From: Dictyostelium discoideum
Lineage: Eukaryota
Direction of reading: 5' to 3'
Assembly: GCA_000004695.1 (NCBI GenBank)
Contig: CM000154.2
Location: 4,896,001-4,960,000, forward strand
Length of the DNA: 64,000 bases
Below are positions 40,261 through 48,594 of this stretch, piece after piece (the stretch's first letter is position 1; every line of letters begins with the position of its first letter). Made by a program: the position numbers and the translations under genes. The notes under the pieces are model-generated. The model was not told the DNA's origin. It worked only from the letters and a program-made list of their open reading frames with translations, and did not search any database.

Positions 40261-43200
40261 ATGAAAAAAATTTTATTTATATTTATTTCATTTTATTTCA
40301 TTCAATCCATTTTTGGTGCGATTGAAAATAAAAAGGTAATAATACAACAAAATAATTTTTTAATAAATTATTTATCACTTTTAAATAATTATGATTTACC
40401 AAATTCAAAAGTAACATTGGAAAATAAAAATGATTTAATTAAAATTAATACCACTACTAATGGAAGTAGTATAATTAGTTTTGATGATTCATTATTTAAG
40501 CCAATTAAATTATATTTTGAAGATAAAATTAATAATATTTCGATTATAGAAAATAATAAAACTATCAGTTTTGATTTATTATTTAATCAAACAAATCAAC
40601 AGTACTATATAAATAGTAATAATAATAATAATAATAATAATATTATTTATATAACATTATATAAAGAGTTGCAACAAATTAAATCATTATCAATATTTAC
40701 ATCAATTATTGGGGATATTAATGTTAAAATTAATAATTCAGTAGCAATTTTAAACAATATCACCAAACTTCCAATTAAACTAGATAATGGTAATTTTGAA
40801 AATATTTATAAATCAATTTCTCACCAAATTATTAAAAATTTAAAACAATCATTATATAATGAAAACGAAAAAAATTTATATGGATACTATGATTTTGAAA
40901 ACAAGCCCGAACAAACTCAAACCCTTTCATTTTTAAAAGGTTTTCTAAATTTTTTACAAATCTCAATCAAAAAGGTAACAATCACGCAACCTTTTTTTTT
41001 TTTTTTTTTTTTTTAAAAATTAAAAAATCTAACCGCCACCAATTTTTTTTTTTTTTTTTTTTTTTTCTTTTTTTTTAGAATTCCCACACAAAACCACAAG
41101 CAAATTTTTCTTTTCTTTATAACGATAATGTAAATGTTTTTTATGATTTGAAAAATTTAACGTAAGATATTTTTTTAAACTATTTAATTTTAAAAAGACA
41201 CAATGGTAAAAATAAACGGAAATATCTAACTCGCAAAAAAAAAAAAAAACAGAAAATCTAAAAGTAACGCATCATATTACAGCTCTTCAATAACATCATT
41301 CTTTTATGATTTATATGAATTAGAAGGTTTTAAAGAATCAAGTGTATCATTTTTAATTGATGTGTTAAGTAATAATGAAAATGTTTATGATTTCAAAACA
41401 TATTTCGTAGAGTTATTAAATGCAGCCAATAATGATAAAAAACCAATGATTTATCAATCATTAAATTCAAATTATTTGTGTTTCTTTGAAAGTAATTGCC
41501 AATTCATTGCACCAAAAACATCATCACTCGAATCAAATTCAACCTCTGCTCAATCAAAGACAACCGATATATCCTCTCGTGCTTCAATTGGTGTATTGGA
41601 AGACCAAGTTAATTCTATTCAATCATTATTATCAGAAGTAGAAGTTGGAAATCCAAAAACCATTCCATTTTATAGTATTTACAATTATGTTTATACCTAC
41701 TCTGATACAAATTACGATGATTTTATTCAAAATGCTAGAATTGATAGTCCGCATACTAAAGACTCTAAAAATAGATGTGTTTTCCAAGATTCTAAAAATA
41801 GATTTTTCGATTTATCACCAACTTCAAAGTATGTATTCTTTTATTTTTTATTTTTATTTTATTTATCTTTGGATTATTATTTTATTTTCTGCCCTATTTA
41901 TTTATAATTATTTTTTTAAAAAAATAATTAAATTAAAATAATTTATCTCAATTATACCATTATAATAGTGTTTTAGGATCATCGCAATATACTACAATAA
42001 ATGGAAGCAAAATTTTTTATTTTAGTCTTTGTGAAGCATCAACTTTATGTACTGCTACAGCTGGTGAAGGACCAGTTCAATCATGTGTTTCAGTAGGTAC
42101 CACAACCTATACAACTGGTATTACTCCATTCAGTCATGTCCAATTCTTTGATAATGGTTTAACAATTCAATACCAATCAGGAAAAATCGATAGTACCACG
42201 TGTACCAATCAAACTGGTTATCATAGAATAAGTAACTTTATTTTAACTTGTGATACAACTCAAAATTATGCAATTAAAGGCTTTGTTGAAAGTTCGCCAT
42301 GTGTCTACGATGTTAAAATCTCCACTAAATTTGCTTGTCCAATTGAAAACAAATACTTATTTGGTAGTAATCAATATGATTTAAGATCAATGAAATTGTA
42401 TGTAGTTTATTATTATTATTATTATTATTATTATTTTTATTATTATTATTATTATTATTATTATTATTATTATTATTATTATTATTATTATTATTATTAT
42501 TATTATTATTATTATTATTATTATTATTATTATTATTTGCTAATTAAAAAATAATTATTAAAGAGAATCATCATCAAATCCATATTCGTCAACTTTTGAA
42601 CTCGATAGATTCCTTTTCAATTTGGGTGGATCTGTTGATGTATGTACTACATTCTCAGGATTAAGTGGAAAATATTATGGTTGTCTTATTTTTGGACTTG
42701 AAAAAACAACTATTCCTTTCTCTGATAAACCAACAGTATCCAAAGTACCATTTATTGCAAGTAGTAATACATCAAACAATATTTTAATTTCATTTAGTTC
42801 ATCATCTACCCCTACCATTTGTACAACCAAGCCAGAGATAAATATATATATCAGATGCTCCAATACTGAATTTACCGTTTTAACCATTGTCAATAACTCG
42901 AATTGCAATCAAACAATCTATGCATCATCTAAAAATGCATGTCCGTTAGCATATTACGAATACTTTGGAAGTAATCCTTATTCCAGTAGTACTCTTTATG
43001 CTCAAGTATTTGATTTTTCACCATTACAAAATAGAACAATGTAATTATTCCTTTATTATTATTACTTATAGTTTATTTTATTTTATTTATTAATTTTAAA
43101 TCTAAAAAAAAAAAAAATAAAAAAAAATAAAAAGAAATGGTTCAATCGAATACCTTGGTCTATCAATTGGAAATGTATATTCTTCTTATTATCATAATTT

Positions 43201-46200: not shown

Positions 46201-48594
46201 TACGATGATAAACATTTGAATACATCGGAAATAAATCAATATTGGATAGTTGGTAGAGGTTTAGGTTCAATTGTTGAAGAAATACCAGAAGCAACAGTAG
46301 ATGATGTTGATTCATATTGTGAAATTCAAAGTTGTACTTCAGATGTAATTGCAAATAGTAAAATCGATTATTCAAATATTTGTCCATACTTGAAATCCCA
46401 ATATGCATATTATTCAACCGATTTCGATCTTTACCTTTGTAGTTTCCCAATAAATGTTGGTGCTAATAGAACAATCCAAGTTACACTTGCAAACAATGCC
46501 AGATATACTTATAAATATTCATATTCTCTACCATGGCTTTCCGAATTCTTAACTGCCAATAGTTCAGATACTCATGGTGGTAATTGTAGTAGATTAAATT
46601 GTGTAACTCCTCCACAAAAACCACAATATTTAAATATTACAGGTTTTAATTTCAATCCATTCGAATTTATTTCACCATTTTATGATTCAAATAAAACGAT
46701 TGCATCTTGGAGAAATACTTCAAGAATTTATATAGGTACATTTGAATGTGGATCAGTTCAATGGATAAATTCAACCAATGTTAGTTGTATTATTCCACCT
46801 GGTATCGGTGCCAATCTAAAAGTTAATATTACAATTGGTGAACAAAAATCTGAAAATCAACTTTTATTCTCTTATAATAAACCAAATATTACAAATAAAA
46901 TTACAGTATCAACTGATGGTGCCACTGATATTAAATATGTTGGTTTCAATTTCGTTCCCGCTGAATTAAAAGATTTTTATAATAAAGAAGAAAACAAAAA
47001 TGTTTCAGTAAATTCAATAACAATCAATGGTAAAACTCAATATAAAGATATTAAATGGATAAATTCAACAAGTTTCTCATTTAATCCAGTTGCAGGTATT
47101 GGTAAAAACCATTCAGTTGTACTTTTAGTTGGTGGACAAAAATCAAATGAAACAAGATCATTCTCTTATAATCCACCATCATTGGATAATAAACAATATG
47201 CAGCACCATCTTCAGGTGGTAAAACTATTACAATCAAAGGTTATGACTTTGTTCCAAAATCATTGAAAAACTCTGTTAATTCGTCAAATGGTACAGTTTC
47301 TATTAATGGCGTACTTTGTGCCAACTGGGAGTGGGTTGATTCTAAAAATGTAAAATGTACTGTACCACCAGGTAAAGGAAAAGGTTTACCAATTCGTGTT
47401 AATGTTCAAAGTCAATTAAATAGTCTTAATAATTACTTTTCTTATGTTGATCCAGAATCTCCAACAAATATTGTAATTTTTATTGTTATTGGATTAGCAG
47501 CTTTGGTTGCAGCAGCATTATTAGCATCAACTGCTTTACCACTTACACAAATAGCATTGGCAACATCTGCAACAGCAGCTAAATCTGGTTCAATATTAGC
47601 ATCTACAGCATCATTTTCAGGAGCATTAGAGAAATCATTACAATTTGGCTTCGCAGCAGTAACTAGAAGAGTTGTAACTCAGGTTGCAAAGAATGGTATT
47701 AAACGTGTATCAACTATAGCTTTAGCAATGGTGGTAACAAAATCATCAATGGGTGGTAACCTATTATCATCATCAACAGCACCAGTACCAACATTCAATC
47801 TTTTATCAATTGCTTCAACACCTTACTCTGCAGTATTTTTCTCAATTAATCATAATGATCGTATCTTTACAATTGATAATCAATTCAATGAAACTGTAAC
47901 ATGTATTGATAATAATAATTTAAGTTTCAATTTCAACAAATCATTCACTTGTCAAATTAATGCTAATAATAATGGTATTAAATGTAATACAACCAACTTT
48001 GGAACTGAAATTAATTGTGGTGTTCGTTCAAAATCTGCATCCTATAAATTCTCTATTCCAACGGTTTCAAAAGTTTCAAGTTCATTAAAATGTGAATATG
48101 ATGCCAATGAAAAATCAATGATAATCTATGGTCAAAATAGTCCAATCTATTGTAAAGATGGATTTAACGAATATACATACAATCATAATTCTACTATTTT
48201 CTGTTCAAATAGTGAAACCCAATCAAACATTGTTGAATGTGTTAGTGATGGCGGTGAACCTGAACATTCATTCATTAATAATGTAGAATGCTATAATTAC
48301 AATAAATATTCATCATGCTCAAAGAATTCATTGGTAAAAGCTTCAGATTATTCTGCATGCTTTGAAGTTCCACCATCCGAAGTAGAGCCAATCGTAATTA
48401 CCAATCAAACTATTATCACAGAATTCAACTCTGCATCAAGTAAACTTGCCTGTTATCCAAAAGAAGTAGAATTTAACTATGCATATAATAATACCCTCAT
48501 TTGTTATAATGTTAAATCTGGATCCATCGATTATTCTGATTCTATCCTTCATCAAATACAATACAAAGTTAAAGTTTGTATTGAAAAAGAATAA
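40261..48594 (+). CDS. Large membrane receptor, 2452 aa, 10 exons. Domain order: signal peptide, N-terminal domain, about 5 MRH (mannose-6-phosphate receptor homology)-like domains with one domain per exon, at least 4 IPT/TIG domains, a hydrophobic TM-like segment, and a Cys-rich C-terminal region. Exons: 40261..40974, 41079..41161, 41283..41828, 41969..42397, 42564..43040, 43135..43560, 43650..43692, 43766..44656, 44746..45755, 45855..48594.
   Basis: All ten exons are joined by GT...AG introns with consistent phases, and the total CDS of 7359 nt is exactly divisible by 3. Signal peptide MKKILFIFISFYFIQSIFGA. MRH-like signatures: GYHRISNFILTCDTTQNYAIKGFVESSPCVYDVKISTKFACP, SGYKRTLKLSFTCNKTENYKVTSYSENPMCTYNLNVQSRYACQ, RKFTLQLRCNT...YSEHAC, and ...ASSKNACP. 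IPT/TIG repeats: LITVTGENF...VKIGETNVT, SLSKTTGKIGDLVTVNGQNF...IYFGSEIAEI...VPPG, and GGKTITIKGYDFVP...VSINGVLCANW...CTVPPGKG. Hydrophobic segment IVIFIVIGLAALVAAALLASTAL. A (TTA)n microsatellite fills intron 4. Confidence 0.65.
42405..42540. repeat. (TTA)n trinucleotide microsatellite, about 45 units, in intron 4 of the MRH/IPT gene.
   Basis: An attattatt... run. Confidence 0.9.

Follow-up and report, generated by a model that had tools for sequence, protein, structure and literature searches.

A stretch of Dictyostelium discoideum DNA of 64,000 nucleotides (nt) (assembly GCA_000004695.1, contig CM000154.2, positions 4,896,001 to 4,960,000; called the window below) carries, at positions 40261-48594 of its forward (+) strand, one real protein-coding gene of ten exons, DDB_G0291065, which encodes a membrane glycoprotein of about 2,460 amino acids (aa). 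The protein consists, in this order, of a signal peptide, an N-terminal region of about 420 aa, four MRH repeats, two domains that we call X1 and X2, an array of IPT/TIG domains, a transmembrane (TM) region and a Cys-rich C-terminal domain. Judged from this domain content and from the conserved binding pockets, the product would be a lectin-type membrane receptor or adhesion protein acting on the cell surface or along the endocytic pathway, and we put the probability of this reading at roughly 60 per cent.

The window has about 25% GC overall, poly-Asn tracts and short, very AT-rich introns. Its + strand was scanned from stop to stop between 40.1 and 48.8 kb, which yielded eight long open segments, and inspection of the gaps between these segments revealed two mini-exons of 83 and 43 nt. 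The joined frame starts with the ATG at 40261, ends with the stop codon at 48592-48594, keeps consistent phases and runs through 2,462 codons with no internal stop. All nine introns, as read from the window sequence, have GT..AG borders, are 73-166 nt long and contain 3.6-20% GC. The proposal of an earlier reading of the same DNA (the first-pass annotation) that ten in-phase fragments of open reading frame (ORF) form one gene was thus borne out, but its figure of 7,359 nt for the coding sequence was not reproduced: we obtain 7,389 nt including the stop (2,462 aa) with the exon 10 acceptor at 45854, and 7,341 nt with the acceptor at 45902. We prefer acceptor 45854, since the 16 residues that it adds are also conserved in the D. 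firmibasis homologue P0007. The window protein is 99% identical to that of D. discoideum AX4 DDB_G0291065 (P0001, 2,441 aa), and the differences between the deposited model and ours are limited to three minor junction choices. The ambiguous splice sites are a possible intron near the poly-Asn tract of exon 1 and the acceptors of exons 3 and 10; for exon 3 we use the acceptor at 41252, where the choice made in P0001 differs (an alternative lies 12 nt downstream).

Exon 1 (40261-40974, with the donor aagGTAACA at 40975) encodes the signal peptide (40261-40317; the hydrophobic N-terminus has a Kyte-Doolittle value of 1.91) and the start of the N-terminal region. The 83-nt exon 2 (41079-41161; acceptor AG at 41077-78, donor GTAAGA at 41162) is also present in P0001. 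Exon 3 (41253-41828) contains the rest of the N-terminal region, which in its whole extent (aa 20-437) had no Pfam match and no detectable relatives, and the first approximately 20 aa of MRH repeat 1 (C-x10-FDLSP). The body of repeat 1, the degenerate repeat 2 and the canonical repeat 3 are encoded by exons 4 (41969-42397), 5 (42564-43040) and 6 (43135-43560), respectively. Exon 7, of 43 nt (43650-43692; AG at 43648-49, donor GTAAGT at 43693), starts repeat 4 and brings exons 6 and 8 back into one frame. The remainder of repeat 4 (to about 44053) and domain X1 (44054-44656) are in exon 8 (43766-44656), whereas exon 9 (44746-45755) opens with domain X2 (44746-45306), continues with a pre-TIG segment and, from 45553 on, encodes the first TIG domain. 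Exon 10 (from 45855, or 45903, to 48594) is one uninterrupted ORF for the other TIG domains, the membrane region, the Cys-rich C-terminal domain and the stop. Intron 4 (42398-42563; 3.6% GC) is mostly a long simple repeat, which reads as poly-Leu or poly-Tyr in other frames and generates spurious ORFs.

Such a long model could be an annotation artefact, either a fusion of neighbouring genes or a decaying pseudogene, and the three deviating junctions as well as the truncated or fragmentary copies of the tail found elsewhere (P0009, P0010 and P0011) can be counted in favour of this view. It is, however, hard to reconcile with the GT..AG borders and the very low GC content of every intron, with the open frame, and with the location of the TIG array, the TM helix and the tail within a single uninterrupted exon of 2.7 kb. 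Moreover, the exon structure and the full-length ORF are shared by at least five species or strains, and the ratio of nonsynonymous to synonymous substitution rates (dN/dS) is 0.34. The tblastn matches in D. firmibasis are interrupted at approximately aa 457, 601, 759, 917 and 1213, with a frame change at each break, and because these positions are the same, the exon structure is conserved across species. We regard an artefact as very improbable. A look-up of the exact product with the exon 10 ORF, sought as transcript evidence, gave zero matches. In the databases, DDB_G0291065 is labelled as a hypothetical protein (NCBI) or as an "MRH domain-containing protein" (UniProt), with a precomputed Pfam TIG assignment; both domain types had thus already been assigned by machine to the AX4 protein, and the novelty of the combination is modest.

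A profile made from alignment A1, which combines MRH repeats 1 and 3 of the homologues, was searched against all PDB sequences and matched CI-MPR (6um1) with E=2.2e-20. The best single-domain matches were domains 3, 5 and 9 of this receptor (independent E-values 7e-6, 2.6e-7 and 4e-4), which are its carbohydrate-binding domains and bind mannose-6-phosphate (Man-6-P); weaker matches were obtained with ERLEC1/XTP3-B (4e-3), GNPTG and a quality-control lectin of the endoplasmic reticulum (ER). The relationship to MRH domains expected by the first-pass annotation was thereby confirmed, with four repeats detected by the profile instead of about five. Repeat 1 (aa 438-592) corresponds to 41767-42371 across intron 3, repeat 2 to aa 593-745 (exon 5), repeat 3 to aa 746-892 (exon 6), and repeat 4 spans exons 7 and 8. 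Compared with the profile of repeats 1 and 3 by hhalign, repeat 2 scored a probability of 88.5% (E=2.7e-6) and repeat 4 a probability of 92.3% (E=5.5e-7).

A phase-2 intron precedes each of the four repeats at the identical point, directly after a DLxPL motif, and this shared position indicates that the array grew by exon duplication. The notion of one repeat per exon holds for exons 4, 5 and 6, with an offset of about 20 aa, but not for repeat 4, which is split over exons 7 and 8. The IGF2R gene has 48 exons for 15 repeats, and on this count we consider the suggested likeness to the exon pattern of the CI-MPR gene to be wrong.

When repeats 1 and 3 are aligned with CI-MPR domain 3, the Arg, the Glu and the C-x-Y motif fall on GFQR, GEVDC and CTY, and the A-C-Q of repeat 3 falls on V-C-Q. 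All four residues of the Gln-Arg-Glu-Tyr tetrad are canonically placed in repeat 3 (C-Q, R, E, C-x-Y, A-C), whereas in repeat 1, which has 8 Cys, Arg, Glu and Tyr are canonical and the Gln is shifted. A column table of the alignment shows no variation across all seven homologues in the Arg, the Cys eight positions after it, the Glu, C-x-Y and A-C of repeats 1 and 3, and the Cys framework (a Cys near the Gln, the Cys eight residues after the Arg, C-x-Y and the terminal A-C) is complete and invariant in these two repeats. Repeat 2 has none of the four tetrad residues (no Gln, no Arg, Glu replaced by Asn and Tyr by Gln) and retains the Cys framework. Repeat 4 keeps only Gln and Arg, and lacks Glu, Tyr and the Cys of C-x-Y. 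Repeats 2 and 4 are homologous to repeats 1 and 3 but degenerate. The C-terminal signature C-x-Y-x5-7-AC, which had been attributed to all repeats, occurs in repeats 1 and 3 with a spacing of x8; repeat 2 has C-x-Q instead, and in repeat 4 that Cys is missing.

Could DDB_G0291065 be the Dictyostelium counterpart of CI-MPR, an intracellular cargo receptor that moves back and forth between compartments and, in the Golgi or endosomes, picks up lysosomal hydrolases marked with methyl-phosphomannose? Dictyostelium hydrolases carry Man-6-P-OMe (methyl-phosphomannose), which is recognized by CI-MPR, and the two proteins have much in common: both have a signal peptide, a membrane anchor and several MRH repeats in tandem, each about 150 aa long; they share the Cys framework, and repeats 1 and 3 also have the tetrad and find their best match in the Man-6-P-binding domains. 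The features of a CI-MPR/IGF2R orthologue (about 15 repeats, the FnII insert and cytosolic sorting signals) were not found, however. There are 15 repeats in CI-MPR versus four here, and the FnII insert of CI-MPR repeat 13 is without an equivalent, no FnII match being found by Pfam. The X domains, the TIG array and the Cys-rich C-terminal domain are additions of DDB_G0291065, and its repeats are arranged approximately one per exon, unlike those of IGF2R. The segment after the TM helix has no DxxLL, [DE]xxxL[LI] (or, more broadly, [DE]xxxL[LIM]) or NPxY motif, and an acidic-cluster dileucine is lacking. Long TIG stalks are typical of surface receptors. In a core sorting receptor one would not normally expect variable copy number, fast evolution (64% identity to D. 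firmibasis) or a family found only in close relatives of D. discoideum. In addition, a CD-MPR-like protein is already present in Dictyostelium phagosome proteomes (PMC3756923). Taken together, a functional counterpart of CI-MPR appears unlikely.

X1 and X2, located between the MRH repeats and the TIG array, are two copies of a domain of about 190 aa and are 31% identical. The approximately 470 aa that hold these two domains had been overlooked by the first-pass annotation. Among 1.84 billion representative proteins, a profile built on these two domains detected five, all of them from Dictyostelium; the domains had no match in Pfam or in the PDB. The TIG array itself (45553-47460, aa 1483-2085) comprises five scorable IPT/TIG domains and one segment of 130 aa (aa 1661-1790), which contains Cys and has no TIG match. 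The predicted IPT/TIG repeats were verified with Pfam PF01833, which matched five stretches with E=1.9e-38 and 130.7 bits, above the gathering score. The E-values of the consecutive segments were 1.2e-5, 2.8e-8, none, 8e-9, 9.5e-3 and 1.7e-17; taken individually, four segments exceeded 20.9 bits and a fifth reached 16.4 bits. Against the PDB, the array gave a match named 'TLP-IPT' (3.6e-12). A homologue search with the TIG region returned zero matches, not even the gene itself, and is thus uninformative on relatedness to Tgr proteins.

The array is followed by TM helix 1 (47470-47538, aa 2089-2111), the sole strong internal hydrophobic peak of the protein (Kyte-Doolittle 3.11), which is also a helix in the AlphaFold2 model. 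Then comes a stretch (47539-47760) modelled as helices by AlphaFold2, in which an Ala/Ser/Thr-rich loop with a cluster of Arg and Lys is succeeded by the weakly hydrophobic segment VSTIALAMVVTK (about 47698-47760). The C-terminal, beta-rich domain (47806-48591) makes up the last 262 aa (aa 2201-2462) and has 14 invariant Cys. It is the most conserved part of the protein, with 74-99% identity across homologues and a dN/dS of 0.10, and it has no match in Pfam or in the PDB. AlphaFold2 modelled the C-terminal module (alignment of six sequences) with low confidence (predicted local distance difference test score, pLDDT, 41-42), and Foldseek against the PDB gave nothing significant. These results agree with the earlier description of a hydrophobic segment followed by a Cys-rich C-terminal region.

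Which side of the membrane this domain faces can be approached through the paralogue P0013, in which TM1, a loop, a strong TM2 and a Pro/Thr-rich linker precede a homologous Cys-rich domain. The membrane-plus-tail modules of the two proteins align with an hhalign probability of 98.8% (E=1e-16), and VSTIALAMVVTK aligns with the strong TM2 of P0013. Because the aligned segment of P0013 is a clear second TM helix, we favour a hairpin (TM1, loop, TM2) that would place the Cys-rich domain on the extracytoplasmic side. This analogy makes the hairpin only somewhat better than an even bet because TM2 is weak in the DDB_G0291065 subfamily: the second hydrophobic segment has a Kyte-Doolittle value of about 1.25 in the orthologues versus 2.2 in P0013. 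If correct, the hairpin would resolve the puzzle of a Cys-rich region located after the hydrophobic segment. A zinc-binding, cytosolic Cys-rich tail was also considered and is disfavoured by the composition of the tail, which contains no CxxC and only 4 His.

The full-length homologues that were found, 64-89% identical, all come from close relatives of D. discoideum; the D. firmibasis homologue is 64% identical. There is one copy in the window, and there are two copies each in D. firmibasis, in another D. discoideum assembly and in D. cf. discoideum. The copies are arranged in tandem at the two loci analysed, L001 (D. discoideum GCA_054859385.1; full-length copies at 1-6670 and 10001-18358) and L010 (D. 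firmibasis; 1-5434 and 6001-14263). The first-pass annotation had called the combination of MRH and IPT/TIG in one polypeptide unusual, which is true in general, but the combination recurs in at least one other group of Dictyostelium paralogues. Of the five proteins found with the X profile, P0012 (D. firmibasis, 2,117 aa) and P0013 (D. cf. discoideum, 3,198 aa) also contain MRH and TIG domains, each with four MRH repeats and two X domains according to the family profiles, and P0014 (1,032 aa) has TIG domains. MRH plus TIG is thus a recurrent, lineage-specific architecture and not a one-off. P0012, P0013 and P0015 (D. cf. discoideum), which are also named 'MRH domain-containing protein', share with DDB_G0291065 the four MRH repeats, the X and TIG domains, the membrane region and the Cys-rich tail; they differ in that the 420-aa N-terminal region is missing, the TIG domains number up to 13 and have the X domains interspersed among them, and a clear second TM helix and the Pro/Thr-rich linker are present. 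The conserved binding residues are also found in the third repeat of the paralogues.

A search with a profile of the tail found only fragments, all within Dictyostelium. P0010 (DDB_G0268484), P0009 and P0011 are short or rearranged proteins with pieces of the membrane region and of the Cys-rich tail; for DDB_G0268484, the alignment covers 46% of the tail query at 91% identity. All three probably represent fragments or pseudogenes derived from the DDB_G0291065 family.

Compared with the closest copy from the other D. discoideum assembly, the synonymous divergence (dS) is 0.11 and the overall dN/dS is 0.34. Repeat 4 (0.74) and the pre-TIG segment of 79 codons (1.26) have the highest ratios, with no clear signal of positive selection. 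These values mark a functional gene that is subject to purifying selection and whose MRH region changes faster. Within-species hyper-polymorphism as in tgrB1/C1 was considered as well and is unsupported: in the strain with the 89% match the gene is present as two paralogues in tandem, dS to the closest copy is 0.11, and identity drops to only 83% in the adjacent DNase II genes. Because the compared copies may be paralogues, the 89% identity does not equal allelic polymorphism.

The main rival of a lectin is a protein-based adhesion or recognition molecule in which the TIG array and the variable MRH-derived repeats make homophilic or heterophilic contacts, as in Tgr proteins, and bind no sugar. 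Degradation of the tetrad in two of the four repeats, the faster change of the repeats than of the rest of the protein (with the ratios given above for repeat 4 and the pre-TIG segment), the tandem duplicates whose copy number differs between strains and species, and the TIG array itself are all compatible with such a role. Against this, repeats 1 and 3 of all homologues, like the third repeat of the paralogues, have strictly kept Arg, Glu, C-x-Y and Gln, a sign that the pocket has been retained, and the overall dN/dS of 0.34 comes with no clear signal of positive selection. We judge purely protein-based adhesion to be rather unlikely, if somewhat less so than a counterpart of CI-MPR.

ERLEC1/XTP3-B, the gamma subunit of GlcNAc-1-phosphotransferase (GNPTG), the beta subunit of glucosidase II and Atg27 belong to the same MRH domain family. 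These proteins have one MRH domain or two, and those that are ER lectins recognize mannose without phosphate; none of the four is known to have a TIG stalk or a C-terminal Cys-rich module. Plexins, Met/Ron, fibrocystin and TgrB1/TgrC1 share with DDB_G0291065 tandem IPT/TIG domains near the membrane and a large ectodomain, but the Sema, PSI and kinase modules of TIG-stalk receptors are absent here and MRH repeats are absent from those families. The tgr genes are likewise a lineage-specific family with variable copy number. Since the DDB_G0291065 family was seen only in Dictyostelium and differs in the number of tandem copies, it fits recognition of the environment or of other cells better than housekeeping sorting.

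Several observations weigh against a lectin-type receptor displayed in the way proposed here. Single MRH repeats fall short of the Pfam cut-offs, and repeat 3 alone gives matches at all (ATG27 6.8e-5, CIMR 3.5e-4 and PRKCSH_1 0.035), each just under its cut-off; the same near-threshold matches were seen with repeat 3 in all homologues scanned. The Gln of repeat 1 is located one residue early (Q-S-C rather than C-Q). AlphaFold2 modelled repeat 1 (11 sequences) as an all-beta domain of nine strands, but with low confidence (pLDDT 41), and in a Foldseek search of this model against the PDB, CI-MPR appeared among the top 30 only at E values of at least 0.47 and TM scores of at most 0.39, which is not significant; the MRH fold is therefore read from the sequence profiles. 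Furthermore, MRH domains can bind protein instead of sugar, as CI-MPR domain 11 does with IGF2. The putative TM2 holds two Lys and one Arg in addition to its low hydrophobicity, and a plain type I topology with a cytosolic tail of 350 aa stays as an alternative to the hairpin. Finally, our literature search found no paper that names DDB_G0291065.

The ORFs 37229-38191 and 38348-39712, both on the - strand, are arranged head-to-head with the MRH-TIG gene. ORF 38348-39712 has a Pfam DNase II match, and ORF 37229-38191 aligns with a gene annotated as DNase II in L001 (6963-9540). These DNase II-type neighbours are about 83% identical in nucleotide sequence to those of the other D. discoideum assembly, where they separate the two MRH-TIG copies; this flank is more divergent between the assemblies than the MRH-TIG gene itself. 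Directly downstream of the gene are two - strand ORFs of 235 and 258 aa (49727-50434 and 50964-51740) with no Pfam match, and in the other D. discoideum assembly reverse-transcriptase genes occupy the equivalent downstream position. Genes for an FAD-binding and a PQ-loop protein, also downstream, are syntenic with D. firmibasis. Elsewhere in the window, a 222-aa ORF (58952-59620, - strand) matches the CAP12/Pycsar-effector TIR domain PF10137 (E=4.6e-37), a TIR of bacterial-defence style in an amoeba genome. Two tandem ORFs of 840 aa on the - strand (22030-24552 and 27512-30034) contain DUF7035, DUF7034, DUF7949 and ComC supersandwich domains; by their sequence, these ComC-like ORFs look like a recent tandem duplication.

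Returning to the lectin-type receptor, its parts may be envisaged to work as follows. Repeats 1 and 3, with their canonical Gln-Arg-Glu-Tyr pockets, would recognize a mannose-type N-glycan determinant, for which mannose, mannose-6-phosphate or the methyl-phosphomannose typical of Dictyostelium are candidates. Repeats 2 and 4, having lost the pocket, would act as spacers or scaffolds, and the X domains with the TIG array may form a rigid stalk or an interaction platform. Extrapolating from the paralogue, the membrane region would form a hairpin in which a basic cytosolic loop connects the strong TM1 with the weak TM2, and the C-terminal domain, of disulfide type, would thereby be placed outside the cytosol, too.

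The value of the finding is limited in so far as the AX4 gene had been annotated with both domains, a CD-MPR-like protein is known, and the function is predicted. Knowledge of MRH (P-type lectin) receptors is most advanced for animals and yeast. The occurrence outside animals of a protein with several MRH repeats and two predicted intact pockets could help to explain how the unusual phosphomannosyl and sulfated N-glycans of Dictyostelium are used, and the protein could also serve in the glycan-based recognition of prey or kin. Its MRH repeats are recombined with a TIG stalk and two lineage-specific domains in a rapidly duplicating family. As a speculation that we hold to be doubtful, the family might be a missing glycan-reading receptor system of the surface or the endosomes, in which repeats 1 and 3 read N-glycans with methyl-phosphomannose or mannose-6-sulfate on the cell's own secreted hydrolases or matrix, on prey or on kin, and an unusual hairpin displays two ectodomains of one polypeptide, the MRH-X-TIG arm and the Cys-rich domain.

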